A stretch of DNA of 64,000 nt from Planctomycetota bacterium (GTDB lineage Bacteria > Planctomycetota > JAMOSO01): NCBI GenBank assembly GCA_027063065.1, contig JAMOSO010000001.1:9128-73127 (forward strand), in the 5' to 3' direction. Positions 4,059-56,872 of this stretch are shown one piece after another. The notes below the pieces were generated by a model. It was not told the origin of the DNA and ran no database searches. It saw only the letters and a list, made by a program, of their open reading frames with translations. Numbering within the stretch: the stretch's first letter is position 1; every line of letters starts with the position of its first letter. Position numbers and translations under genes: made by a program.

Positions 4059-4217
4059 CTACTTTCCGCGTTCTTGATCGCTAACGCTTAAACGTTTGCA
4101 ACCTTTAGCACGACGACGATTTATAATCTTACGACCACTTTTAGTAGCCATACGATGACGAAATCCGTGTCTGCGTAGTCGACGGCGAGTTTTTACTTTT
4201 CCACCTACTCCAGCCAT
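4059..4217 (-). CDS. rpmH: 50S ribosomal protein L34
   Basis: Too short for the ORF track. Hand translation gives [52 protein letters not shown] (52 aa). The HGFRxRMATKxGRKxxxRRRxKGRKRLxV core is the L34 signature. Confidence 0.9.
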
Positions 4218-4286
4218 ATTTATCTCCTAGTACAGTTATTCTTATAAAGAGCGAGAAATCATACAGGTTTAAACCATAATGTCAAT

Positions 4287-13495: not shown

Positions 13496-13528
13496 ACAAT
13501 AGCCATAGCCTTAGGTTATGGCTATTGT
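13496..13528. terminator. Hairpin terminator between convergent aminotransferase and HAD genes
   Basis: acaatagccatagcc / ggttatggctattgt arms (one G-U pair) around a 3-nt loop, followed by a T-rich tract. It starts 8 nt after the aminotransferase stop and overlaps the HAD gene stop. Confidence 0.55.
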
Positions 13529-14161
13529 TTTATTTAAAAAATCTACCAATGCTTCTTGAGTATTAAAAATATGGTGTGGGTTTGCTGATTTTAAATGATT
13601 AAAAGGTTGATATCCCCATGTTACACCTATGGCTTGAACATCAGCCTGTAAGGCATGTTTAATATCACTGGTAGCATCACCTATCATAAAAATGCTATTA
13701 GCGTTAATTGACATATCTTTTTGTAATTTTTTTAATTTATCTGCTTTATTGCCAGCTGTTTCTTCACCTAAAACTTGAGTAAAATATTTATTAATGCCTT
13801 TACGATTTAAAGTAGGTTTTACAACTGATTCATGATTGGCCGTAATAATAACTAATGTAGCTATTTTGCTTAACCTTTTTAATGTTTGTTCAATACCCGC
13901 AAATAAATCCACCTTATCTGTTGTGTTGTCCAAATAAGCCATAGTTTTATATACAAAATCTTTGTGTAAATGTTTTGGCATTTTAATTTGATGGGCTAAG
14001 GCTTCAAAACTCATTGTCGGTAAATATTGTAAATCTGTTACACAAGGCAATTTAGAGTATTTTATCTGCTCACACGCATAACAGGCAGCTTTAATATTAT
14101 GCTCGGCAGAATCTAACAAGACTCCATCGTAATCAAAGGCAACAACTGCTTGTCCAATCAT
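13511..14161 (-). CDS. HAD-superfamily hydrolase (phosphoglycolate-phosphatase-like)
   Basis: 216 aa. Motif I VAFDYDGVLLDS (DxDG) and motif IV MIGDATSD. Confidence 0.75.
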   Translation of the reverse strand: MIGQAVVAFDYDGVLLDSAEHNIKAACYACEQIKYSKLPCVTDLQYLPTMSFEALAHQIKMPKHLHKDFVYKTMAYLDNTTDKVDLFAGIEQTLKRLSKIATLVIITANHESVVKPTLNRKGINKYFTQVLGEETAGNKADKLKKLQKDMSINANSIFMIGDATSDIKHALQADVQAIGVTWGYQPFNHLKSANPHHIFNTQEALVDFLNKTIAIT

Positions 14162-14181
14162 ATATTCTCACATTTATAGAT

Positions 14182-14211
14182 AAAAAAAGCTCTGTGCATA
14201 TTACACAGAGC
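14182..14211 (-). terminator. Rho-independent terminator after gap
   Basis: Stem gctctgtg (14189-14196) / cacagagc (14204-14211). On the minus strand it is followed by a U7 run (A-run 14182-14188). It lies 38 nt after the gap stop. Confidence 0.6.
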
Positions 14212-14249
14212 CTTTGTATTTTAAAACATATAAAAATATGCGTTAATTA

Positions 14250-15254
<1,005 letters not shown>

Positions 15255-22683: not shown

Positions 22684-23307
22684 TTAATTAGTTTCACCTG
22701 GAGAGAAAAATTTATCCGCTCCAATCATTGTAGCATCTGTAGGTGCCGCACTAGATGCAGCAGAAGTATCTATATCTTCTTTAATATCAGTAACTTTTTT
22801 AACTGAAGCATCTGTTTTTAAGACATGAAAATATTCATTACCTTCACCCCAAAATGATGGATAATCAGAAATATGAACTGTAGTTTTAATATTTACAGAA
22901 GCAGCTAAAGTTAAAGTATTTAATGCATAATTAGAATTGATGACTTTTGTAGGAGCTGTGACACTGTCTAACTCAGGAACTTTTAAAGCACCACGTTGAG
23001 GCGATTCAAAAGTTTTTACAGATAAGTTTTGATCATTCATTAAACATGCAAATGCTTGACCTACGCCATTGTCGCTAGCATCAACATTAGCTTTAGCCGC
23101 TTCTAAACCAGGAAACACATCTTTGTTATCCATAGTGTACATAGCCATTGAACTTGCCATTGCTTTAAGATTTGACATAGATTTAACAGCATTGGCTTTT
23201 TCTTTTGCCTTGCCAAGTGATGGCAATAACATTGAAGCCAAGATTGCGATAATCGAAATTACAACTAGCAATTCGATAAGGGTGAAGCCTTTTAGTAGTT
23301 TTTTCAT
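22684..23307 (-). CDS. Prepilin-type N-terminal cleavage/methylation domain protein (PVC-type pseudopilin, DUF1559-like)
   Basis: 207 aa. MKKLLKGFTLIELLVVISIIAILASMLLPSL prepilin leader plus hydrophobic helix. C-terminal FHVLKTDASVKKV motif. Strong SD (aggagg) upstream. Confidence 0.85.
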   Translation of the reverse strand: MKKLLKGFTLIELLVVISIIAILASMLLPSLGKAKEKANAVKSMSNLKAMASSMAMYTMDNKDVFPGLEAAKANVDASDNGVGQAFACLMNDQNLSVKTFESPQRGALKVPELDSVTAPTKVINSNYALNTLTLAASVNIKTTVHISDYPSFWGEGNEYFHVLKTDASVKKVTDIKEDIDTSAASSAAPTDATMIGADKFFSPGETN

Positions 23308-23342
23308 ACTACCTCCTAAAAAAAAGAAAAAAGTGTAAATAA

Positions 23343-23371
23343 AACATATACCACATATCTGATATTGTCAA
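23343..23371 (-). promoter_or_regulatory. Sigma70-type promoter candidate for pseudopilin gene 1
   Basis: Read on the minus strand: TTGACA (23371-23366), 17-nt spacer, TATGTT (23348-23343). It lies about 35 nt upstream of the ATG at 23307. Confidence 0.45.
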
Positions 23372-23408
23372 TACATAATTTAAAATATAGTATGCTCTAT
23401 CGTACAAG

Positions 23409-24026
23409 TTAAGGCTGTGTTCCTTCTGTGGCAAATAATCCCGTGCCTATCAATAACGAATCTGACACCTTATTAGTGCTTACACCTACGCCAATTTCAT
23501 CCATATTTACAATTTTTTTTACAGAAGCATCGCTATATAAAGCATGAAAATAAGATGAGCCTGCTTCCCAAAAACTAGGCCTGTCCATTATATGAATGGT
23601 AGTCGACAAATTTATCCCCTTAGATAATGTATTTGTATTAAATACATAACTAATATTAGTAATAGAAGTAATTGGATCATTACCAACAACTACGGGACGT
23701 TTTAAGCGTGCCTTTTGAGGACACTCTAATACATCATTGCTTAAATCTTGATCATTTAATAAAACCCTAAATGCATCATCCACATCTGAAGATGCTGTAG
23801 TATTAGCCTTAGCTGTAGTTAAACCAGGATAAATGTCATTATGATCCATTAAATACATAGATACTGCACTATCTAAAGCCTTTAAATTGGACATTGATTT
23901 GGATGCATTAGCCTTTTCTTTAGCTTTAGTCAAAGAAGGCAATAACATAGACGCCAAAATGGCAATGATAGAAATCACCACCAACAACTCTATCAAAGTA
24001 AATTTTTTAATTAACAAACGTTTCAT
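23409..24026 (-). CDS. Prepilin-type N-terminal cleavage/methylation domain protein (paralog of 22684-23307)
   Basis: ORF 23409-24056; preferred start ATG 24026 (MKRLLIKKFTLIELLVVISIIAILASMLLPSL). C-terminal FHALYSDASVKKI. Collinear with the neighbouring paralog. Confidence 0.85.
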   Translation of the reverse strand: MKRLLIKKFTLIELLVVISIIAILASMLLPSLTKAKEKANASKSMSNLKALDSAVSMYLMDHNDIYPGLTTAKANTTASSDVDDAFRVLLNDQDLSNDVLECPQKARLKRPVVVGNDPITSITNISYVFNTNTLSKGINLSTTIHIMDRPSFWEAGSSYFHALYSDASVKKIVNMDEIGVGVSTNKVSDSLLIGTGLFATEGTQP

Positions 24027-24179
24027 ACCAACCACTAGTTTTAAAATCGGGCACAACTATAATAAAAAATATTTCACATTCAATTAAAAGTATAAATAAA
24101 AGTATTTAAATAGCAGTTGACAAATTTATATTCCACCTTAAATTAATACTGCTTTTAAAATCACTATTTGGAGAGGTCT

Positions 24180-25724
24180 ATGTTTGCAACTTTATGCGCT
24201 ATTACATTACATGGGGTAGATGCTATCGAGGTGGCTGTTGAGCTTGACGCGAGCAATGGGATGCCTTCATTTCAAATTGGCGGATTAGGTGATTCTGCAA
24301 TCAAAGAAAGCAAACAAAGGGTGATTTCTGCTATTAAAAATTCTGGATATAAAATACCACCCAGACGCATTACAGTAAATTTAGCACCAGCAGATTTAAA
24401 AAAAGAAGGCACTTGCTATGATTTGGCCATTGCTATTGGATTATTAATAGCGACTAATCAGATTGAAATATTAATAAAAGGCAAATTTTTGATATTAGGC
24501 GAATTGTCATTAGACGGTAAATTACGTCCAGTATCTGGTATTTTACCCGCAGCTATTATGGCTAAAAAACAACAATATGATGGATTAATTCTGCCTAAAG
24601 AAAATCAATCTGAAGCAAGCGTTGTAGAAGATATCAAAATAATTGGAGTCAATAATTTGCTAGAAGCAATTAAATTTTTATCTAATGAATTTATACCCAA
24701 CACAACAGAAATACATAATATTATACCAAACAACGAAAACTACCCTGTAGATTTTAGTGATATTAAAGGACAAGAAGGTGTTAAACGTGCATTAACAATT
24801 GCAGCAGCTGGAGGGCATAATTTAATTTGTATAGGCCCTCCTGGATCAGGCAAAACAATGTCTGCTAGAGCCATACCATCTATTTTGCCAAGCTTAAGTA
24901 AACCAGAAATGCTAGAAACCAGTAAAATTTATTCTGTGGCTGGATTACTACCCACTAATTATCCATTAATACATACTAGGCCATTTAGAGCCCCACATCA
25001 CTCAATATCAGAAGCCGGCCTAGTCGGTGGCGGTAGCAATCCTATGCCAGGAGAAGTAAGTTTGTCACATAATGGCGTATTATTTTTAGATGAACTAACC
25101 GAATTTAATCTGCGTACATTAGAATCATTACGCCAACCGCTAGAAGATAAAAAAATTACCATATCAAGAGCTAAACGGACTGTAACATTTCCATCAAATA
25201 CTATGCTATTAGCCGCCATGAATCCATGTCCTTGTGGTTTTTACGGTTCTAATTCCAATAGCTGTACCTGTACAAGCAATCAAATACAAAAATATCTGAG
25301 TAAAGTATCAGGGCCTTTGCTTGATCGTATTGATATGCACATAGAAGCCCCTCCTGTAAACAAAACTGATTTATTAAGCAATACTAAATCAGAAACATCG
25401 GCATCAATAAAAATTAAAGTAGAAAATGCCAGAAATGTGCAATTAAAACGATTTCAGAACCAATCTAATATGCAAATACATAGTTGTTATTCTAATTCGG
25501 ATATGAATCCTCGTCAAATTAAACAATTTTGCTTATTAAATACACAAAATACTAAATTAATGGAAAAAATGTTTGATAATTTAAACTTTTCGGCGCGTTC
25601 ATACAATAAAGTCTTAAAAATAGCACGTACTATAGCCGATTTAGACGATTCAAAAAATATAGAACAAAATCATTTATTAGAAGCCATTCAATATAGAACT
25701 CTAGACAGAAAATATTGGGGTTAA
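24180..25724 (+). CDS. comM: Mg-chelatase-like AAA+ ATPase YifB/ComM
   Basis: The ORF track begins at TTG 24168. The ATG at 24180 sits 5 nt after a ggagagg SD. Lon-protease-like N-terminal domain, Walker A GPPGSGKT, Walker B GVLFLDE, ComM C-terminal domain. Confidence 0.9.
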   Translation: MFATLCAITLHGVDAIEVAVELDASNGMPSFQIGGLGDSAIKESKQRVISAIKNSGYKIPPRRITVNLAPADLKKEGTCYDLAIAIGLLIATNQIEILIKGKFLILGELSLDGKLRPVSGILPAAIMAKKQQYDGLILPKENQSEASVVEDIKIIGVNNLLEAIKFLSNEFIPNTTEIHNIIPNNENYPVDFSDIKGQEGVKRALTIAAAGGHNLICIGPPGSGKTMSARAIPSILPSLSKPEMLETSKIYSVAGLLPTNYPLIHTRPFRAPHHSISEAGLVGGGSNPMPGEVSLSHNGVLFLDELTEFNLRTLESLRQPLEDKKITISRAKRTVTFPSNTMLLAAMNPCPCGFYGSNSNSCTCTSNQIQKYLSKVSGPLLDRIDMHIEAPPVNKTDLLSNTKSETSASIKIKVENARNVQLKRFQNQSNMQIHSCYSNSDMNPRQIKQFCLLNTQNTKLMEKMFDNLNFSARSYNKVLKIARTIADLDDSKNIEQNHLLEAIQYRTLDRKYWG

Positions 25725-26112
25725 CAATATTCAATCTAAAAAGTCTTTAATTAGTACGAAATAATCCCATTATAGCCTAAAAAAATAAATTTATAGTTAT
25801 ACACCGCCTATCAATCCAAATTATCGGCAAAAATACTTGACCTAAGCGATTTATCTGATTTAATCATCAGACGAGATTGATTGACTGCCAAAATTGTATT
25901 GTAAAAAAACCGATTTAAACGATGGGTTTTACCGATGATTAAGATTTAATTACAAGATGTTTATGATTGAGTTTTACTTTGTAATAATACTTAAATTCAA
26001 TAATGGCAATAGTTTATCAAAAATCAATGAAATATATCAGCGTTCCTGTTATAGTAATAGTATTAGTAGTTAAAAGAGGTAATAGTAACTATTCTTTTTT
26101 TATAAAATAAAT

Positions 26113-27951
26113 ATGAATAAAAAACAATTAACATTTATGGATAATATTAATACTAATGGCCGTAAAGAGCCATTAACTATTATTAAAGCTAATAATTTAG
26201 AAAATAGCACTATAACTTTTGATGAAATTTTACTAGGTCAAACTTCGATTGTAGCTCCGGAAGGCGCTGTACTTGAAAGACGTGTCAATCCTGATACATC
26301 ACAAGAATATTTAGTTAAACGATTTAACCATGTAGTTGGAACACATAATGGTGATTTAAGATCAGTTGAAATAGAAATAGAAACACTACCCAGTCAGGGC
26401 TTAACAGACTATTTTGATGATAAAGTATTATTAACTCTACATTCTTTAGCTTTAGAAAAAGACTCTTATGAGTATTACACAAATATTTCAGAAATTTGCG
26501 CCGCTAGAGATTGGCCTTTAAATGGTGAATATATTGCTAAAGTACGCAAAAGCTTAGAAAAACTAGAAGGTACTTCTATTGCCAGTGATCAATTTGTTGA
26601 TCCTGATACTAACGAATCAATTAAACAAAGAATAAATTTATTATCTCGTTATGTGCGTTTTAAAGACGAACAGCGTTCAACATCAATCAAAAAAGACGGT
26701 ATTTTATATGATGATGAAATTAAATTTAAAAAAGATTTTTTAATTGAGATAAATCAATTTTTTTTTAAGAGTTTGCAAAAACAAAAAATAAAACTTGATA
26801 TTAAGGTTTTAAATTCATTTAGAAATAAAACAGTTGAAAAATTATATCGCTTTTTAAATACAATGTTTCAATTAAAATCAGAAATTGAAATAAATCTAAC
26901 AGATTTATGTGAAACTTTAGGCATTACTGTGCCTAAGTATATTTCTAATATAAAACGTAATATTTATGTACGTTATATCAAAGAAATAGAAAAAAATAAT
27001 ATAATCAAACCTTTTGATATTAAAACTAATTATTATAAACATAATAAAATTTGGCGTGTGAAATTTGAACGTGGTGAATTTTACGAGTCTCTTGAAGATA
27101 GATGGGCAATGAAACCAGCTTTATTTAATATTTTTAATTATTTGCACGCCGAATTAAAATTTAAAAAACATGAAGCTCATACTTTGATGGGTAAATATGC
27201 CAATGAGCTTATTCAAGAAAATATCAATTATTTGCGTTTATCATTAGAAATTACTCCAAATGTGATTAGATATCCAAAAGCTTGGATGAAAAAATCATTA
27301 GAAAACAATTGGGATCATAGTTTAAATTTACAAATCTTAAGAGAGTTAAAACACAGTAAAACACCATTAACACAATATCAGCAATCTTGGGAAAAACGTG
27401 ATTTTAATGAAGAAGAAAAACAAGCATTTGAACGTTGTACTATTAAATTTAAAATACCAGAAAACATAGTTATTCCTTGGATTAAAACCCATGCTAATTT
27501 TGATTATATCAAACAATTAGATAAGGTTTTTGATTTATTAAAACCTGAAGAACAAAAATATGATTATTTAGCTACTATGATTAGACATCGAGACTCCAGA
27601 GTTTGGCGTATAACAATACCTGGCAGTGAGCAAGAACAAGTTGCCAATCGTATACAAAAACAGAAATATCAATCTTTGTTTGCTAATGAAATTGTAATTG
27701 AACCAGATGACATAGAAACATCAGATAATATCACACCTGTCGCCCCTCCTATGCCCAATATATTAAATTTAATGGACGCCTTAAAACAACATTTAGGAGA
27801 AGAATATAATAAATTGTTTAATGAAACATATATGGCTGCGGAACCTGTTTTAGTTTTAGGTGGCATTGATAGCCCAGAGGCAATTAGAGATGCAATTTTA
27901 ATTCAGATGCAGAAAACATATTTGCCAAATTTTATTACGCAAAATGATTAA
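26113..27951 (+). CDS. Large hypothetical protein whose N-terminal half resembles RepA/TrfA-type (winged-helix) replication initiators; function unverified
   Basis: 612 aa. Segments LPSQGLTDYFDDKVLLTLHSLAL, ISEICAARDWPLNGEYIAKVRKSLEKLEGTSI and FRNKTVEKLYRFLN...INLTDLCETLGI follow, from memory, the pattern of replication-initiator-protein-A/TrfA families. The C-terminal ~280 aa is unassigned. No SD precedes the ATG. Confidence 0.5.
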   Translation: MNKKQLTFMDNINTNGRKEPLTIIKANNLENSTITFDEILLGQTSIVAPEGAVLERRVNPDTSQEYLVKRFNHVVGTHNGDLRSVEIEIETLPSQGLTDYFDDKVLLTLHSLALEKDSYEYYTNISEICAARDWPLNGEYIAKVRKSLEKLEGTSIASDQFVDPDTNESIKQRINLLSRYVRFKDEQRSTSIKKDGILYDDEIKFKKDFLIEINQFFFKSLQKQKIKLDIKVLNSFRNKTVEKLYRFLNTMFQLKSEIEINLTDLCETLGITVPKYISNIKRNIYVRYIKEIEKNNIIKPFDIKTNYYKHNKIWRVKFERGEFYESLEDRWAMKPALFNIFNYLHAELKFKKHEAHTLMGKYANELIQENINYLRLSLEITPNVIRYPKAWMKKSLENNWDHSLNLQILRELKHSKTPLTQYQQSWEKRDFNEEEKQAFERCTIKFKIPENIVIPWIKTHANFDYIKQLDKVFDLLKPEEQKYDYLATMIRHRDSRVWRITIPGSEQEQVANRIQKQKYQSLFANEIVIEPDDIETSDNITPVAPPMPNILNLMDALKQHLGEEYNKLFNETYMAAEPVLVLGGIDSPEAIRDAILIQMQKTYLPNFITQND

Positions 27952-30936: not shown

Positions 30937-30950
30937 GTTTCACGTGAAAC
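30937..30950. promoter_or_regulatory. parS: parS centromere-like site (core GTTTCACGTGAAAC)
   Basis: 14-bp perfect palindrome identical to the core of the conserved chromosomal parS consensus TGTTNCACGTGAAACA. It sits 62 nt upstream of the parA ATG. Confidence 0.8.
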
Positions 30951-30975: not shown

Positions 30976-31004
30976 TTGCATGTTGCCGAGCTTGAGCTTA
31001 TAAT
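30976..31004 (+). promoter_or_regulatory. Sigma70-type promoter candidate for parA-parB
   Basis: TTGCAT (30976-30981), 17-nt spacer, TATAAT (30999-31004). The parA ATG at 31012 lies 7 nt after the -10 element, with no SD. Confidence 0.55.
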
Positions 31005-31011
31005 CTTAAAT

Positions 31012-31830
31012 ATGTATTCTAAAAAAATAACGTTTATTAATCAAAAAGGTGGTGTAGGTAAAACTACATTATGTGTTAATGTTGCCGCTGATTTAGCTAT
31101 GCGTAATTATAAGGTTTTATTGGTTGATACTGATCCGCAAGCTAATGCTACTACTGTTGTGCATGAAGCTCCAGAAGGGGCGCCAACTATTGCAGATGTG
31201 ATGTTGGGTGATGTGAGTGCTGCCGATGCGGTGGTAACTGCACGCAAAAACTTAGATTTATTACCTTCTGGTGAAAATATGTGGAATTATTCATTTCAGG
31301 TAGTGCAACAAAATTTAGGTGATTTGCTAGGCCGTTTTCGTGAGGTTATTGATTCGGTTGATAAAGATTATGATTTTATTATTTTTGATACAAATCCATA
31401 TCCTGCTACTTTATGTATATTGGCTTTGGCTTTTTCTCAGCATAGTATTACGCCAATGTTTCCAGAGCCTTTTGCATGGGATGGGTATTCGACTTTATCG
31501 GGTTTAATTAATGATATTCGCAAGGATTTTAATCCAGACATACAACCTTTGGGTATCGTGGTAAATAACTTTAATGGATCAAAAAATATACATAAGGAAG
31601 TTTGCATGGCATTGTTTGAATCTGTTCCAGATGAAGTTTTTAAATCGGTCATTAGAACAAATAGTAACTTATGTAAGATGGGAAATGAATTAAAAACTAT
31701 TTTCGAAATAGAGTCTCCCAGCGGTAAAGGAAATAAGGATTTTTCGGCTTTGACGGATGAAATGTTAGATAAACTGTGTATGCCGATACGTAAAATGGAT
31801 GATGATATAATTAAAGCCCTGCAAAATTAG
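31012..31830 (+). CDS. parA: Chromosome partitioning ATPase ParA/Soj
   Basis: The ORF track starts at TTG 30976, inside the promoter. The ATG at 31012 gives [19 protein letters not shown] (deviant Walker A) and [13 protein letters not shown]. Confidence 0.9.
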
Positions 31831-31838
31831 GAGGTTTA

Positions 31839-32717
31839 GTGGCTGATTTTTCTGAAATAACCAAACAATTTAAAGAGAGTCAATCAGGCAAAAACAAACC
31901 AGCTCAGGGGCGTATTGCCGCTAAAGTGGCAAAGTTTAAACAGGATAAAATTGCTTCTGAATTTAAATTGGTTGAACTTAGTTCTATTGCACCCGATCCT
32001 AATCAGCCTAGGCGTATTAAGGATACCAAGAGTCGTGATTTAAAGTCCTTAGCTAAAACAATTAAAGAAAAAGGTGTTTTAGAACCTTTGCTTGTGCGTG
32101 AAACAGCAACAGGGTTTTTGTTAGTAGCTGGTGAAAGGCGTTATTGGGCTAGCCATATAGCTAAATTACGTGCTGTGCCTGTTAGGGTTGTGCATCTTAA
32201 TAGCCAAGAAATAGCCGAGGTACAATTAATTGAAAATATTCAGCGTAAGGATTTAAATCCATTAGAGCGTGCGAGAGGGTTAAAAAATATTGCCGATTCT
32301 GGAGGTAGCACAAAAGATATTTATAAACGAGTAGCAATTTCTCGCTCTTTATATTATGCGTTACTTTCTTTATTAAATTTACCAGAAGAAATACAGGATA
32401 AAATAGATCAAAGCTATGCTAACGAAAATGAGGGTATACCCCTTAGAGAATTAATTGAATTGGCAAAGATTAAAGACATTAATAAATTAAAATCAGCTTT
32501 TGAAGATTTAGATAGTGGCACTAGTTTAATAGAAGAACGACAAAAAAATAATCCTAAAGCATCAACTATTGCTAAAAATAAAGTTAAAGATTTTCAAAGA
32601 GTCTCTAATAAACAAGGGGTTGAAATATTATTGCGTATTCCAGCAGAGATGAAACCAAATGAGCTAGATTTAGAAGATATTGATGCGTTGTGGCAAGAGG
32701 TGTTAAATAAATTATGA
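31839..32717 (+). CDS. parB: Chromosome partitioning protein ParB/Spo0J
   Basis: 292 aa with a GTG start after an aggagg SD. ParB-box LEPLLVRE...FLLVAGERRYWAS and an HTH region. The N-terminus is Lys-rich. Confidence 0.9.
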   Translation: MADFSEITKQFKESQSGKNKPAQGRIAAKVAKFKQDKIASEFKLVELSSIAPDPNQPRRIKDTKSRDLKSLAKTIKEKGVLEPLLVRETATGFLLVAGERRYWASHIAKLRAVPVRVVHLNSQEIAEVQLIENIQRKDLNPLERARGLKNIADSGGSTKDIYKRVAISRSLYYALLSLLNLPEEIQDKIDQSYANENEGIPLRELIELAKIKDINKLKSAFEDLDSGTSLIEERQKNNPKASTIAKNKVKDFQRVSNKQGVEILLRIPAEMKPNELDLEDIDALWQEVLNKL

Positions 32718-51856: not shown

Positions 51857-53965
51857 CTAATTTAATGTTACCATTGCGACTGATTCAACTTCGACTTCAC
51901 GAACCATTTCATTATACGAAAGAACGACCAAGGATGAAAGAGGTCGTGAGGTCATATGCTTAACTTGTGCACGAATTGTTGCCGCAACTAGTAAAATAGG
52001 GATATGTCCTTCTCCTACTATGACTTCTACCTGGGACGCAATGGCATTATTGATCATTTGTACTTGATCGGACGACATTTTTAGATAACTACCATTTTCT
52101 GTGCGTTCAATCATATTAAAAATTGTATCTTCTAAAGCTGGGTCTAAAGTTATAACATATAGTTTGCCGTTGTCTTCACGGTATTTAAAACAAATGTCCC
52201 TAGCCAAGGTGTTTCTGACATACTCAGTTAAGACTTCAATATCTTTTGTTTTAGATGCCCAATCACCTAAAGTTTCTAATATGCCTTCCATATTGCGAAT
52301 GGAGACTTTTTCTTCTAATAGGTTTTTAAGCACTTGTTGTAGCTCACCCTTAGTTATTACTCCACCATCTTTTTCTATTACCTCTTCTACTACAGCAGGG
52401 GCGTTTTTCTTAACTTCGGTAATTAGTTTACTGACTTCTTCACGTGTTAGCAGTTCAGCACTATAAAGTTTAACTATTTCTGTTATATGGGTAGAAATTA
52501 CAGATGTTGGATCTACTACTGTATATCCAAGCATTTGAGCTTCATCACGGTGTTCACTTGTTACCCAGATAGCTGGCATTCCAAAAGCGGGCTCTACGGT
52601 TTCTATACCATCTACTTTCTTTTCAGCCATACCAGAATCCATTGCCATAAATCTATCGGCGTATATACGTCCGTTTGCCACTTCTGTGCCACGTATATGC
52701 ACACGGTATGCATCGGCTTCTAATTCCATATTATCCCGTATGCGTATAGGTGGCACTACAATGCCTAAATCGGTTGCCATGGTACGTCTAAGGTTAGTAA
52801 TGCGATCTAATAAATCTCCACCTTGGCTAGTGTCAACCAATGGTATTAGCCCATATCCTACTTCTAAATCCATAGGATCGACTCGCAATAAACTTTCGAT
52901 ATTTTCTGGCTCGCTAGATTTTGTGGGAGCAGCAGTATCTTTGGCTTTTTTAATGGATTTTTGTTTAATTTCTTCAATAACTGTTTTTTGTAATGCCCAG
53001 CTTAAACCAATGAGTCCAATACCTAAAATAATTAGCGGTGGCTTGGGTAAAGGAGTTGCAGCCATCAGTAATAATACTATACCTGTAATACCAGCGGCTC
53101 TAGGTCCTGGATTTGTTACAAATTGATTTACCATAGTTGCGCCCATATTGCCACCATCGTTTGAGCGTGTAATTAATAAGCCAGCACCTGTAGAAAGGAT
53201 TAAAGCAGGTATTTGAGACACTAACCCGTCGCCTATGGTTAGCATAGTATAGACCTTCATCGCTTCAGTCCAATCCATACCATTCATTGCAACACCTATT
53301 ACAAATCCTCCTAATAAGTTGATGCCTGTAATAATCAAGCCAGCAACAGCATCACCTCTGACAAATTTACTAGCACCATCCATCGACCCATAAAAGTCCA
53401 TTTCTTGCGTCAATCGTGCGCGCCTACTTTGTGCTTGCGCTTCGTCTATTAATCCTGCATTTAAATCTGCATCGATAGACATTTGTTTACCAGGCATTGC
53501 ATCTAAGCTAAAACGTGCCGCTACTTCTGTTATACGTGTGGAGCCTTTGGTAATTACTACAAAGTTTATAATTACAAATATCAAAAACATTACAAACCCT
53601 ACAACGGTGTTGCCACCAGCTACAAAGCTTGAAAACGCATTAATCATACCACCAGCATCAGGAGGGATAGTGCTAGAGCCTAAAATTAAACGTGTTGTGC
53701 TAACATTAAGAGATAGCCTAAAGACAGTGTTCATTAATAACATAGCTGGAAAACCAGAAAACTCTAATGGGTCTTTGATATATATGACTCCCATCATTAC
53801 TAATACTGTAAATCCAATACTAACCGATAGAAAAAAATCAATTATTTCTGGTGCTACAGGCACTATCATTAAGCCAATGGATATGACCATAACCATTGGC
53901 ACTGCAATATCGGTCCATTTTTTGCTGTTAGTTGTTATGTTTATATATAAATCTTTAACGCTCAT
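51857..53965 (-). CDS. flhA: Flagellar type III export apparatus protein FlhA
   Basis: 702 aa. Conserved N-terminal TM domain (FPAMLLMNTVFRLSLNVSTTRLIL, FSLDAMPGKQMSIDADL) and a C-terminal cytoplasmic domain. Confidence 0.95.
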   Translation of the reverse strand: MSVKDLYINITTNSKKWTDIAVPMVMVISIGLMIVPVAPEIIDFFLSVSIGFTVLVMMGVIYIKDPLEFSGFPAMLLMNTVFRLSLNVSTTRLILGSSTIPPDAGGMINAFSSFVAGGNTVVGFVMFLIFVIINFVVITKGSTRITEVAARFSLDAMPGKQMSIDADLNAGLIDEAQAQSRRARLTQEMDFYGSMDGASKFVRGDAVAGLIITGINLLGGFVIGVAMNGMDWTEAMKVYTMLTIGDGLVSQIPALILSTGAGLLITRSNDGGNMGATMVNQFVTNPGPRAAGITGIVLLLMAATPLPKPPLIILGIGLIGLSWALQKTVIEEIKQKSIKKAKDTAAPTKSSEPENIESLLRVDPMDLEVGYGLIPLVDTSQGGDLLDRITNLRRTMATDLGIVVPPIRIRDNMELEADAYRVHIRGTEVANGRIYADRFMAMDSGMAEKKVDGIETVEPAFGMPAIWVTSEHRDEAQMLGYTVVDPTSVISTHITEIVKLYSAELLTREEVSKLITEVKKNAPAVVEEVIEKDGGVITKGELQQVLKNLLEEKVSIRNMEGILETLGDWASKTKDIEVLTEYVRNTLARDICFKYREDNGKLYVITLDPALEDTIFNMIERTENGSYLKMSSDQVQMINNAIASQVEVIVGEGHIPILLVAATIRAQVKHMTSRPLSSLVVLSYNEMVREVEVESVAMVTLN

Positions 53966-53966
53966 G

Positions 53967-55043
53967 TTATCCTGCTACTTTTTTACCTTGTTGAGCCCAT
54001 ACAACAGACAACACCTCTATTACGGCTTTATATAATTCTGGTGGTATTAATTGTCCTACTTCAATATCTCTAAATAACTGTCGTGCTAATGGCGGGTTAG
54101 ATTGTATTGGGATATTGTTCTCAATTGCTATTTTGCGTATTTTTTGAGCGATTACATTTCGGCCTTTTGCAACCACAACGGGCGCGATGCTATTGGGCTC
54201 ATATTTTAAAGCTACTGCATATTCAGTTGGGTTTGTTACTACAACATCAGCTTTGCCAGCATCATTCATCATACCGTTCATTAAAGCTTGGCGAGCCATT
54301 TGCATTCGTCTGGCTTTAATTTGTGGATCGCCATCCATCTGCTTCATTTCATCTTTGACTTCTTGTTTACTCATTTTCATATCTTCAAAATATTGCCAAC
54401 GCTGGTATAAATAATCTACAAACCCTATGGTTAATAAAATTAATGCAATTCTAATACTTACGGTCATAAATAAGTCTGAAATTACCACTAGAGTCTGACC
54501 TATACCAAAGTCCATAGATTTTAGTAAATCTGGCAAACCAGCTTCTAATGATATAAATCCAACAACAGCTACCACTATAACTTTTAGTAGTCCCATTAAT
54601 AGACGCATGATAGCTTTAGTTTTAAATAGTTCTATACCCCAAGTAAATACATTAAATTTAATGTTGCTTGCCTTTGGTATTAATTTGTCGAAACTAAATA
54701 AAATGCCAAATTGTAGCCAATGTATGATTATGGCGCCCACTACAGTCAATAATAAAAAAGGCCCTAGCATATAAATCATATACATTAAAGTGTTTAAGCT
54801 AATGCTTACAAAATTGCCAACATTTAAACGGGCGTCATCTAACTCACCTAATATTCTACTAGTGTATCCCATTAATGTTTCTAATAATGGCCTGCCTAAT
54901 ACTTTTAAGGAAAGTAATCCAACCAATAAGATAAAAGCAGCTCCTAAATCTTGGCTACGTGGGACATTGCCTTTTTCACGCGATTCTCTAATGCGTTTGT
55001 CAGTTGCATCTTCTGTTTTTTCTTGTCCGTCATTTTCAGCCAT
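53967..55043 (-). CDS. flhB: Flagellar type III export switch protein FlhB
   Basis: 358 aa. N-terminal EKTEDATDKRIRESREKG, 4 TM, and the autocleavage region, here TNPTEYAVAL. Confidence 0.95.
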   Translation of the reverse strand: MAENDGQEKTEDATDKRIRESREKGNVPRSQDLGAAFILLVGLLSLKVLGRPLLETLMGYTSRILGELDDARLNVGNFVSISLNTLMYMIYMLGPFLLLTVVGAIIIHWLQFGILFSFDKLIPKASNIKFNVFTWGIELFKTKAIMRLLMGLLKVIVVAVVGFISLEAGLPDLLKSMDFGIGQTLVVISDLFMTVSIRIALILLTIGFVDYLYQRWQYFEDMKMSKQEVKDEMKQMDGDPQIKARRMQMARQALMNGMMNDAGKADVVVTNPTEYAVALKYEPNSIAPVVVAKGRNVIAQKIRKIAIENNIPIQSNPPLARQLFRDIEVGQLIPPELYKAVIEVLSVVWAQQGKKVAG

Positions 55044-55833
55044 GCGCGGCGGCCTCGCCCATAATATCTAACAATTCTATTGTGATACCGTTGATAGTGT
55101 CTAATAAACGATCAAATCCCATGCTAATGCCAGTAAGCCCAATCATTAGTAATATAATGCCAGTTATGATTTGGGCTGGCATTCCAATAACAAATACATT
55201 CATTTGAGGCATTGTACGAGCTAAAAAACCTAATATTACAATCACGATAAATAACGAGCCAACTAATGGTGCTGCAAACATGACGCCTATAGTAAACATA
55301 TATCCAACTTTTTCGGCAATATATCCTGCCATCATTTCCGAAAATACAAATCCGCCTGGTTTTATAAACTCAAAACTGCGTGCAATGGCCAATACAAACC
55401 AGTCTGGTCCACCAATAATAATAAATATGGCTAATAATAAAAAGAAGTACACCTGAGCTATTAAAGATACTTGAGTTTCTGTAAAAGGATCTAACACATT
55501 GGCCATAGCTAATCCCATGGAATGTCCGATTAAAAAACCGGCAAATTGAACGCCTATAAAAATAAGATTTGTAGTAAAACCCATTAAAATGCCAATTGAT
55601 AATTCGGCAAAGGCTGCCATAGTGAGATCTGTAATATCTGTTGGCATTGGCACGTTTGGATTCCAAACGCCAGGAAAAATCATTAATGCAAATAAAAATG
55701 CCATCATAGCTTTGGCGCTATTTGGTATGTCTTGACTGCCAAAAAAAGGAGTAAAAAGAAAAAACCCCGAAGTACGTACAATAATCAATAAAAAAAACTC
55801 CATTTGCATTAGAGTAAATTGCATTACGTTCAC
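55036..55833 (-). CDS. fliR: Flagellar export apparatus protein FliR
   Basis: 265 aa polytopic protein, positioned between fliQ and flhB. Confidence 0.9.
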   Translation of the reverse strand: MNVMQFTLMQMEFFLLIIVRTSGFFLFTPFFGSQDIPNSAKAMMAFLFALMIFPGVWNPNVPMPTDITDLTMAAFAELSIGILMGFTTNLIFIGVQFAGFLIGHSMGLAMANVLDPFTETQVSLIAQVYFFLLLAIFIIIGGPDWFVLAIARSFEFIKPGGFVFSEMMAGYIAEKVGYMFTIGVMFAAPLVGSLFIVIVILGFLARTMPQMNVFVIGMPAQIITGIILLMIGLTGISMGFDRLLDTINGITIELLDIMGEAAAHG

Positions 55834-56102
55834 GGTATTTTAGCGCTTTCTACATATTTCATTATTTCGTAAGTGTAATTCATTAATTCTTGCATCATCC
55901 AAGGCAAGGTTAAAATTAAGACTATAATTACTAAAGCAATTTTTGGTACAAATGCTAATGTCATTTCTTGTATAGATGTCATAGCTTGGAAAATACCCAT
56001 AATCACACCTACTACCATAGCTACTATTAACATTGGAGTGCTTACTTTTACGATGACCCATAAAGCCTGGCGTCCTAAGTCTATAGCTTGTTCGGGATCC
56101 AT
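55830..56102 (-). CDS. fliQ: Flagellar export apparatus protein FliQ
   Basis: ORF 55830-56144. Preferred start ATG 56102 (MDPEQAIDLGRQALW) overlaps the fliP stop by 1 nt. 90 aa, two TM. Confidence 0.9.
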   Translation of the reverse strand: MDPEQAIDLGRQALWVIVKVSTPMLIVAMVVGVIMGIFQAMTSIQEMTLAFVPKIALVIIVLILTLPWMMQELMNYTYEIMKYVESAKIP

Positions 56103-56872
56103 TAATAAAAGCTCCTTACAAGCGAGCCTACAATTAAGTTCCATCCATCAACTAGCACAAATAGTAAAATTTTAAAAGGAAACGATACCATTACTGGGGG
56201 CAACATCATCATACCCATGGCTAGTAGAATAGAAGCTACCACCATATCTATTACTAGAAAGGGCAAAAATATCATAAACCCCATTATAAAGGCGCGTTTT
56301 AATTCGCTTATGACAAATGCAGGTATCAACACTTCTGTTGGCACATCGGCTTTAGTTTTGATGTCTGTAACCCGTGCTATTTTAGCAAAAAGGGCAATGT
56401 CCTTTTTGCGTGTATGTTTAAACATAAAAACACGCATAGGTTTAACTGCTTCTTCTAGCATTTTAAATTGTCCGCCTTGACCGGCAAATTCGCCACGCAG
56501 ATAGGGCTGTATGGCGTTTTGATTCATTACTTTCCAGGTTGGCAACATAATAAGGAATGTTAAAATTAAACCCATTCCCATCAAAACTTGATTGGGTGGC
56601 ATTTCGTTGGTAGATAACGCTCGGCGTACAAAAGACAATACAATCACTATGCGTAAAAATCCTGTAGTCATTAACAATATGGAAGGTGCTAAAGTTAGGA
56701 TGGTTAATAATACGATTACCTCTAGCGTATTGGCAACATCTCCGGGCTTGGTGGCTGGTTGGACAAAATTAAAAGTAGGGATAAAACTGGCGTCTTGCGC
56801 CATAACGGTGGCAGTCCCAACGATAAACGCAATCAATGTAAATATGAGTAATTTTATGCGAGATATCTTCAT
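56102..56872 (-). CDS. fliP: Flagellar export apparatus protein FliP
   Basis: 256 aa. Signal-like N-terminus and conserved FliP blocks (SFVRRALSTNEMPPNQVL, AFVISELKRAFIMGFMIFLPFLVIDMVVASILLAMGMMMLPP). Confidence 0.95.
   Translation of the reverse strand: MKISRIKLLIFTLIAFIVGTATVMAQDASFIPTFNFVQPATKPGDVANTLEVIVLLTILTLAPSILLMTTGFLRIVIVLSFVRRALSTNEMPPNQVLMGMGLILTFLIMLPTWKVMNQNAIQPYLRGEFAGQGGQFKMLEEAVKPMRVFMFKHTRKKDIALFAKIARVTDIKTKADVPTEVLIPAFVISELKRAFIMGFMIFLPFLVIDMVVASILLAMGMMMLPPVMVSFPFKILLFVLVDGWNLIVGSLVRSFY

Follow-up and report, generated by a model that had tools for sequence, protein, structure and literature searches.

Background

Replication of bacterial main chromosomes is regarded as starting with DnaA nearly universally, known exceptions being reduced endosymbionts and some cyanobacteria, for which it is not known what mechanism has taken over. 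On replicons that carry core genes, plasmid-type initiators do exist, namely RctB and those of the repABC chromids, so far in Proteobacteria (PMC6090056). Indeed, all secondary chromosomes (chromids) studied have plasmid-type origins of either the iteron or the repABC kind, and the iteron chromids described so far belong to beta- and gammaproteobacteria (PMC6090056). On plasmids of Planctomycetes, RPA (PF10134) is the main initiator family (13 out of 21; bioRxiv 10.1101/2024.01.22.576637). No precedent was found in the literature for Rep-driven main chromosomes in the Planctomycetes-Verrucomicrobia-Chlamydiae (PVC) group, nor among bacteria without dnaA. The present analysis concerns a rep-like gene and the spacer upstream of it, located in a stretch of 64,000 nucleotides (the window) of a Planctomycetota bacterium (GTDB Bacteria; Planctomycetota; JAMOSO01), taken from the forward strand of contig JAMOSO010000001.1 of assembly GCA_027063065.1 (positions 9,128-73,127). 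In at least two lineages, and probably in four, a chromosome-class replicon has its replication origin marked by this gene and its spacer. Coordinates are window positions; together with two contig extensions (~17 kb), ~81 kb were examined around the locus, the main features of which are:

26113-27951, plus strand: rep-like gene with ATG start, open reading frame (ORF) of 612 amino acids, coding for a divergent initiator of the RPA superfamily

25725-26112, no strand assigned: putative replication origin, an ORF-free, AT-rich spacer of 388 bp between a ComM/YifB-type gene and the rep-like gene, where the GC skew at third codon positions (GC3 skew) changes sign

30937-30950, no strand assigned: parS, perfect 14-bp palindrome GTTTCACGTGAAAC, just upstream of parA

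30976-31830, plus strand: parA, annotated

31839-32717, plus strand: parB (ParB_N and HTH_ParB domains), TIGR00180 at 115 bits, above cut-off

A Rep-type initiator of the RPA superfamily

To judge from its homology, the ORF product is a plasmid-derived Rep-type initiator and a divergent member of the RPA superfamily. Pfam returned one weak match on it, RPA (17.8 bits, E 0.0025), but the same region was matched in all four members of its clade (E 4.8e-6 to 0.074), with scores of 26.7 bits for the ortholog from locus L004, 22.3 bits for P0002 and 13.1 bits for the ortholog from locus L005, and with an entry 'RPA (weak)' for P0003. Word-indexed searches, performed with the protein and with a four-sequence profile, retrieved only the protein itself and P0002, so that an exhaustive search was needed. 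This HMMER search of 1.84 billion representative proteins with a two-sequence profile yielded 62 relatives, of which 57 contained PF10134 (best E 4.9e-20), 26 Rep3_N, 17 TrfA, and four DnaA_N, and bona fide RPA proteins were recovered at E from 2.6e-10 downwards. Furthermore, hhalign aligned the clade with 28 outgroup plasmid-type RPA proteins over 364 columns (query columns 26-410; 99.93%, E 5e-36), identity to the plasmid initiators of the RPA family being 15-25%. The protein had no match in NCBIfam, nor by phmmer among all PDB chains, the RctB entries 5tbf and 5ubf included, at E up to 10, and no relatives of Rep were found in PHROGs or viral contigs.

A tandem winged-helix fold of the RPA/RepE/RctB kind was predicted with confidence. 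The AlphaFold model based on the 62-sequence alignment had a predicted local distance difference test score (pLDDT) of 82, exceeding 90 for most of residues 30-500, and replaced an earlier model from a two-sequence alignment (pLDDT 53). Its helices and strands follow each other as is usual for a pair of winged helices. Its predicted layout comprises a short beta element, two winged-helix units, a helical region, a disordered linker (residues 519-551), and a helical tail, which correspond to the following stretches:

26200-27072, plus strand: residues ~30-320, N-terminal beta element, winged helix 1 (~100-182) and winged helix 2 (~209-320); pLDDT mostly >90, supported by Foldseek and by the hhalign columns given above

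27079-27612, plus strand: residues ~323-500, all-helical C-terminal region of the model without Pfam family, the first module of which (to ~414, IR.P.AW motif) is common to plasmid RPA proteins

27760-27948, plus strand: residues ~550-612, helical tail after the disordered linker, kept in the L004 and L005 orthologs and absent from P0002

Among PDB structures, Foldseek ranked domains 2-3 of RctB first (E 7.5e-7, probability ~1.0), followed by RepE54 of the F plasmid (probability ~1.0, TM-score ~0.58 on the target). Similarly, a structure search of a viral library led to 'initiation of plasmid replication' proteins, being plasmid or phage replication initiators. An earlier, sequence-only reading of the window had delimited the same ORF and recognized a two-winged-helix pattern of the Rep/TrfA kind in its N-terminal half; profile and structure searches bear this out, and the peptides on which it relied fall in predicted winged helices 1 and 2. 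It had also considered the C-terminal ~280 amino acids unassignable, which holds for the tail (residues 550-612), for which no match was found, but not for the ~170 amino acids of confidently predicted helical region, the first module of which aligns with plasmid RPA proteins. This module ends in the IR.P.AW motif in both the target and P0005, the nearest outgroup RPA protein, and several relatives align to residues 400-470, as does the sole match in PLSDB. The N-terminal motif (QLTFM / QLSFLP / QMSFLP) was kept in the orthologs, indicating that the annotated start is about right.

Compared with the plasmid initiators of the RPA family (e.g., Rep of a Tetrathiobacter kashmirensis plasmid and the Reps of Planctomycetes plasmids), the protein is thus homologous over the N-terminal motif, both winged helices, and the first C-terminal helical module. 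It also belongs to the same size class, and its gene likewise adjoins a long non-coding AT-rich region. The likeness to RctB, the initiator of Vibrio cholerae chromosome 2 (PDB 5tbf and 5ubf) and best structural match for the winged-helix pair, is structural only, without a sequence match; both are large multidomain Reps (~600-660 amino acids) with extra N- and C-terminal regions. RepE (F), pi (R6K), RepA (pPS10), and TrfA (RK2) share the tandem winged-helix fold, and Rep3_N and TrfA matches occurred among the relatives, but the target is more than twice the size of these proteins.

The C-terminal tail was considered as a DnaA_N domain and this was rejected, as no Pfam match at E up to 10 and no BLASTP similarity were found and the tail is all-helical in the model. 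The target differs in this respect from P0005 (L088, 7341-8936), which carries a C-terminal DnaA_N domain (PF11638, 31.6 bits) and is located behind ~2.7 kb without called genes. The latter domain hints that RPA-family initiators may recruit the helicase via a DnaA domain I module.

Position at the strand-composition switch

With the plus strand as reference, pooled GC3 skew changed from about -0.28 left of 26 kb to +0.26 right of it (Mann-Whitney p = 1e-9). Genes of both strands had the same sign, with values of -0.30 (plus) and -0.27 (minus) on the left and +0.35 (plus) and +0.22 (minus) on the right, indicating that the flip is not due to gene orientation. When the skew was fitted with two terms, 0.10 was assigned to replication and 0.08 to transcription, and the breakpoints that fitted best were at 25-29 kb. 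Gene by gene, the sign changed between the ComM-type gene (-0.13) and the rep ORF (+0.04), i.e., in 25724-26113, with +0.3 to +0.5 further to the right; the locus is a skew extremum, and the rep-like gene does sit at the flip, as had been noticed before. The AT skew was complementary, with an excess of A on the left and of T on the right. To the right of the spacer, the plus strand is hence G- and T-rich like leading strands, which indicates an origin and not a terminus. A terminus was considered and rejected, given that the signs of both skews are of the origin type and that parS-parAB is origin-proximal.

Some genes deviated from their arm. The gap gene (14250-15245, minus strand) and the adjacent haloacid dehalogenase (HAD) hydrolase gene, together covering 13511-15245, had a GC3 skew of +0.24 and +0.04, respectively, versus about -0.3 in all neighbours, which suggests a recent inversion or acquisition; the glyceraldehyde-3-phosphate dehydrogenase of the window matched best with the E. 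coli-type GapA model NF011954 (625 bits). Further, the flhA-flhB-fliR-fliQ-fliP genes (51857-56872) had a skew near zero (-0.24 to +0.07) in an arm that is otherwise at +0.3, which could reflect either membrane-protein composition or a past inversion.

Linkage of rep and spacer in related lineages

The close clade among the 62 relatives consisted of P0001-P0004 only (26-52% identical), representing the window and three other lineages. In each of these, rep was found behind a long AT-rich spacer, with core genes on the contig. The related loci are:

L004 (102-kb contig), left of the spacer: rpsB-tsf-pyrH-frr, two tRNAs, a rimO-like gene, response regulators, parB-parA, and a canonical parS

L004, spacer of 1.6 kb (23% GC) and right of it: rep ortholog (615 amino acids), greA-like and secretion-ATPase genes

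L086 (8.5-kb contig): Rep 86% identical to that of L004, gene order as in L004, blocks of conservation within ~300 bp upstream of rep

L005 (11.7-kb contig, beginning inside the spacer): 399 bp of spacer (18.5% GC); on the right, rep ortholog, secA, rnhA, and an HU-like gene

L001 (19.5-kb contig, 50% GC): on the left, cmk, plsC-like, nth-like, and exbD genes; spacer of 580 bp; rep ortholog, then contig end

In L004, the 13 genes on the left, from both strands, had a GC3 skew of -0.42 and the 10 genes on the right one of +0.25 (p = 6e-5). A check for orthologs at the skew switch, proposed in the sequence-only reading, thus found one in a second, independent genome, next to parS-parAB as well. 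In L005, the genes downstream all had a non-negative GC3 skew (0.00 to +0.40). The flank opposite to rep varied with the lineage, being a ComM-type gene, exbD, or parA, and the pairing of rep with a spacer was constant, which is the arrangement expected of an initiator gene with its own origin. Between the window and L004, Rep was 30% and ParB 27% identical; such similar divergence fits long co-residence of both.

It is hardly plausible that rep is the remnant of an integrated plasmid or mobile element without a present role, its position at the skew switch being coincidental. Although the family is plasmid-borne elsewhere and rep, with a GC content of 27.9%, is more AT-rich than the neighbouring genes, both of which would suit such a remnant, the rep-spacer pair is also found at the skew switch of a second genome and, in a third one, where an arm of positive skew starts. 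Moreover, rep has an uninterrupted reading frame that is conserved in four lineages, and its codon usage is host-like (z = +2.4). In addition, no integrase, transposase, relaxase, or tRNA genes were found in the annotated stretches of the window and its extensions, in line with the earlier remark that no integrase or transposase marks an integrated element, and flanking repeats were not found either.

Outside the clade, distribution data were sparse. A GTDB scan with the Rep protein found no clade member. With ParB, 80 loci from many phyla were retrieved (at most 46% identical), which were of no help for taxonomy and none of which contained a Rep homolog, and synteny comparison with these loci gave nothing. 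Within the clade, the Rep of L001 is closest to that of the window (52% identity), yet its region has 50% GC versus 33% in the window, pointing to either a large drift in base composition within the clade or a transfer of the module. L004 and L005 both originate from metagenome Ga0256837, have a GC content of 32.6% and 31.6%, respectively, and each starts an arm with a clade Rep, these Reps being only ~25% identical; the two loci could be from different organisms or from one organism with two Rep-driven replicons.

Candidate cis elements in the spacers

The spacer of the window, which had been described as 388 bp of ORF-free, AT-rich DNA and proved to be so, had a GC content of 25.3% versus 33.1% for the window and a longest stop-free stretch of 44 codons. 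An Rfam scan gave no match in the spacers and only the two tRNAs in L004. The following elements were retrieved from the window spacer:

25857-25884, plus strand: candidate iteron copy 1, GATTTAATCATCAGACGAGATTGATTGA, with two overlapping GATTGA cores; direct repeat D1

25943-25970, plus strand: candidate iteron copy 2, GATTTAATTACAAGATGTTTATGATTGA, 71% identical to copy 1, 86 bp from start to start

25731-25736, minus strand: extra GATTGA core (motif scan)

25811-25816, minus strand: extra GATTGA core (motif scan)

26066-26091, plus strand: promoter-proximal inverted repeat TAGTTA-N14-TAACTA, a possible diverged autoregulatory operator, where L001, L004, and L005 have GTTA[AT][AT]TAAC

GATTGA was the most enriched 6-mer of the spacer (5 copies versus 0.24 expected, uncorrected p = 5e-6), two of its copies closing the pair of 28-nt repeats, and ranked second among the enriched 6-mers in the spacer of L001, the closest relative. 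Similarly, the L004 spacer contained eight copies of GTGTAA (0.85 expected), a motif that recurs in the conserved blocks of L086. A single copy of the 10-bp palindrome GTTA[AT][AT]TAAC was present in each of L001, L004, and L005, 2-35 bp upstream of the start codon of rep. The four spacers had no GC-containing k-mer of 8 or more in common, the motifs being lineage-specific except for GATTGA (window and L001). As candidates, these repeats and the palindrome fit iteron-like sites that may have co-evolved with Rep, together with a putative autoregulatory operator. The inverted repeat before the start codon also suggests that the monomer-activator, dimer-repressor logic of RepE, pi, RepA, and TrfA is likely to apply. 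As a difference from ori2 of RctB, the iterons of which are Dam-methylated (PMC6090056), no GATC sites occurred in the spacers of the window, L004, and L005.

Other elements were seen in and near these spacers. The spacer of L086 (3812-5472) contained eight copies of GCGCAA (0.5 expected). GC-rich inverted repeats (TTGCGCCAGCGCAA ... TTGCGCTGGCGCAA) flank parS on both sides in L004 (8414-8549). Near its 5' end, the rep ORF of the window contains a hairpin with a stem of 7-10 bp (26152-26177), which a terminator scan reported on both strands (2 found versus 0.1 expected in shuffles).

DnaA, DnaA boxes, and the initiation of replication

No DnaA boxes (TTATCCACA-like, up to one mismatch) and no cluster of them were found in the window spacer, and the spacers of L001, L004, L005, and L086 were without a DnaA-box cluster too. 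Boxes with up to one mismatch thus occurred inside none of the four clade spacers; L004 had two at the parA-side edge. The density of two-mismatch boxes there was near background. Over the window, 16 one-mismatch boxes were counted versus 24 expected. Similarly, neither dnaA nor dnaN was found in the window, its two extensions, or the related loci, and a scan for DnaA signature motifs, which found DnaA in a control locus, found none in the ~81 kb around the locus or in the related loci. The locus resembles a main-chromosome DnaA-oriC region in that an initiator gene lies beside an AT-rich origin at a skew switch, near parS-parAB, rpmH, and rsmG, but differs from it by an initiator with a winged-helix Rep fold instead of an AAA+ ATPase, by the lack of DnaA boxes, and by the absence of dnaA and dnaN from the neighbourhood. 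It differs from the RepE, pi, RepA, and TrfA plasmids too, as these use host DnaA and the window origin is without DnaA boxes.

It is fairly probable that rep and its upstream spacer form the initiator-plus-origin module of a chromosome-class replicon, the origin being fired by Rep. Several results weigh against this proposal. The RPA score of the target (17.8 bits) is below the Pfam gathering cut-off of 27 bits. The regular iteron array of classic iteron origins (17-22-bp units), as in the RepE, pi, RepA, and TrfA plasmids, was not found in the window spacer; the enrichment of GATTGA falls to p ~0.01 after correction for 2,080 six-mers, the candidate iterons being short, few, and chosen post hoc; and the window is without the GTTA[AT][AT]TAAC palindrome, of which it has only the split version. 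The skew of L001 is weak. Only ~49% of the coding bases are co-oriented with forks leaving the spacer, as derived from strand totals, and highly expressed operons point towards the spacer, namely rplU-rpmA-obg in the window, rpsB-tsf-pyrH-frr in L004, and secA/hupB in L005. Finally, the sequence-only reading had stressed the lack of dnaA and dnaN in 64 kb, which stands and extends to ~81 kb, but dnaA was present within 10 kb in only one of 80 ParB-centred control loci, so that its local absence is weak evidence by itself. The dnaA and dnaN genes and a DnaA-type oriC could be located elsewhere on the same or another replicon, beyond the ~81 kb examined.

A quite improbable alternative holds that the spacer is a DnaA-dependent oriC with diverged boxes, its dnaA being distant as in E. 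coli and Caulobacter, and that the Rep-like protein, instead of being the initiator, has been domesticated as a DNA-binding protein with an accessory or regulatory role. Indeed, many bacteria have oriC far from dnaA, as the control loci illustrate, several iteron plasmids also need host DnaA, and the iteron evidence is weak; the skew switch, the AT-rich unwinding region, and the nearby parS are present as well, but mark an origin of any type. What argues against a DnaA-dependent oriC is that none of the four spacers contains a DnaA box at up to one mismatch, that rep is tied to the spacer in each of four lineages although the opposite flanks differ, and that a full initiator architecture has been kept under selection at 25-52% identity.

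Partition locus, gene neighbourhood, and nature of the replicon

The parS-parAB locus lies 3.0 kb from the end of the rep ORF, with parA and parB directly after parS, as the sequence-only reading had it, and ParB belongs to a Spo0J/Noc-like family. The canonical GTTTCACGTGAAAC adjoins parA in both the window and L004. Upstream of rep, a YifB/ComM-type ATPase gene (TIGR00368, 626 bits) ends at 25724. Among the neighbours, the core genes rpmH, gap, fabH, obg, rplU, rne/rng, and flhA scored above NCBIfam cut-offs and rpmA was found by a Pfam match, which agrees with the core chromosome genes listed before. The rpmH gene lies at 22 kb and rsmG/gidB at 26 kb from the locus. The left contig extension contained rsmG/gidB, an M16 peptidase gene, ompW, and nth, and the right one pilQ, pilO, pilM, and phosphotransferase system genes. 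On main chromosomes, rpmH, rsmG/gidB, and parAB are typical genes of the origin neighbourhood and usual companions of dnaA-oriC. A canonical parS together with rpmH, rsmG, and parAB around the Rep module therefore favours, without proving, a main chromosome over a chromid. The bacterium is uncultured, deep-branching, and Planctomycetota-like, and the replicon is probably its main chromosome.

The main rival explanation accepts the module as described and differs in the replicon, which would be a secondary chromosome, with dnaA and a DnaA-type oriC on a separate main chromosome. A chromid is unlikely, albeit with several traits in its favour: a plasmid-type initiator and origin, which the window shares with all secondary chromosomes studied; RctB as best structural match; a host-like codon usage, as chromids have; and the L004 and L005 pair, with different Reps and similar GC in one metagenome, which could be two replicons of one cell. 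As in Vibrio cholerae chromosome 2, the replicon is proposed to be of chromosome class, with core genes and its own ParAB; unlike there, parS is the canonical one of main chromosomes and the host is not a proteobacterium. Livny et al. are said to have found in 2007 that secondary replicons normally use their own distinct centromeres, whereas the canonical main-chromosome parS occurs next to parA in both the window and L004. The origin neighbourhood with rpmH, rsmG/gidB, and parAB, genes usual in the oriC region, argues against a chromid as well, as do the universal single-copy genes (rpsB, tsf, pyrH, frr, secA, cmk, rplU, rpmA, obg, rne) that abound on each of four independent contigs.

Further observations concern genes of this neighbourhood. 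The stop codon of rep overlaps the start of a NeuC-type UDP-N-acetylglucosamine 2-epimerase gene (TIGR03568, 294 bits) by 8 nt (27944-27951), which suggests co-transcription of the initiator with a sugar-nucleotide enzyme. The rpmH gene (4062-4226, minus strand; TIGR01030, 49 bits) codes for an unusual N-terminus and is followed by a mannose-6-phosphate isomerase gene instead of rnpA, with rsmG/gidB just beyond the left end of the window.

Host and plasmid ancestry

The host is, to judge from its genes, a deep-branching, low-GC, flagellated, Planctomycetota-like bacterium. The best named relatives of its FlhA were from Planctomycetota, Sedimentisphaerales, and Phycisphaerae metagenome-assembled genomes, at identities of 52% or lower, and these relatives and prepilin N-termini of the PVC style underlie the placement, with no close relative in GTDB. 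The prepilin-type genes concerned are two paralogues (22684-24056, minus strand) coding for the N-terminus FTLIELLVVISIIAILASMLLPSL, which adjoin an O-antigen-ligase/tetratricopeptide repeat gene.

A plasmid ancestry of Rep is suggested by the contexts of outgroup RPA proteins, by PLSDB, and by the occurrence of RPA on Planctomycetes plasmids. Indeed, the 9.6-kb contig that encodes P0005 also encodes a small ParA and a partner of 100 amino acids, P0008 adjoins a VirC1-type ParA and a ribbon-helix-helix (RHH) protein, and the sole PLSDB match is the 'replication initiator protein A' of a plasmid from Isosphaeraceae (Planctomycetes), i.e., from the phylum of the closest FlhA relatives. In contrast with these plasmid relatives, which have a small plasmid-type ParA and an RHH protein, the rep of the window occurs among core chromosomal genes at a skew switch, with a chromosomal-type ParB/parS, and core chromosomal genes surround rep in all four lineages of the clade. 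Its host-like codon usage, the lack of mobile-element genes, the lack of relatives on viral contigs, and the similar divergence of Rep and ParB point to a long residence in the host.

Proposed mechanism and significance

A mechanism can be proposed that combines these features. Firstly, Rep monomers would bind short repeats in the spacer, for which the two 28-nt GATTGA-containing repeats and the further GATTGA cores are candidates. Secondly, Rep may bend and melt the neighbouring AT-rich DNA, upon which the host replicative helicase could be brought in via the C-terminal region of Rep. Thirdly, two forks would leave the spacer in opposite directions, giving rise to the strong G-over-C and T-over-A leading-strand bias on both sides. 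Fourthly, Rep dimers probably repress their own promoter at the inverted repeat just before the start codon. Lastly, ParB bound to the canonical parS, 5 kb from the spacer, would segregate the new origins together with ParA. Of the three readings offered from the sequence alone, the one in which a Rep-type initiator fires the origin of a chromosome or chromid fits best.

As to DnaA, it is tentatively proposed that the replicon is a main chromosome for which DnaA is dispensable or absent, such independence being inferred. Likewise, it is possible, if short of probable, that a lineage of flagellated, free-living, Planctomycetota-like bacteria lost DnaA and oriC and that its only or main chromosome is replicated from a plasmid-derived, RPA-type Rep and the adjacent origin, with the ancestral ParB-parS of the chromosome and the origin-neighbourhood genes retained. 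If true, this would be a natural, ancient counterpart of the 'integrative suppression' known from the laboratory.

The initiator family, the phylum, and the pairing with a canonical main-chromosome parS and origin-neighbourhood genes are new. Origin-prediction tools that rely on dnaA and DnaA boxes would miss such origins. A Rep-type initiator is described here at the skew-defined origin of core-gene replicons from uncultured lineages that have diverged from each other and do not belong to the Proteobacteria; these number at least two and probably four. At least, the chromid principle is widened to include an initiator family and a phylum new to it; at best, this is a concrete, testable case of a chromosome changing its initiator.

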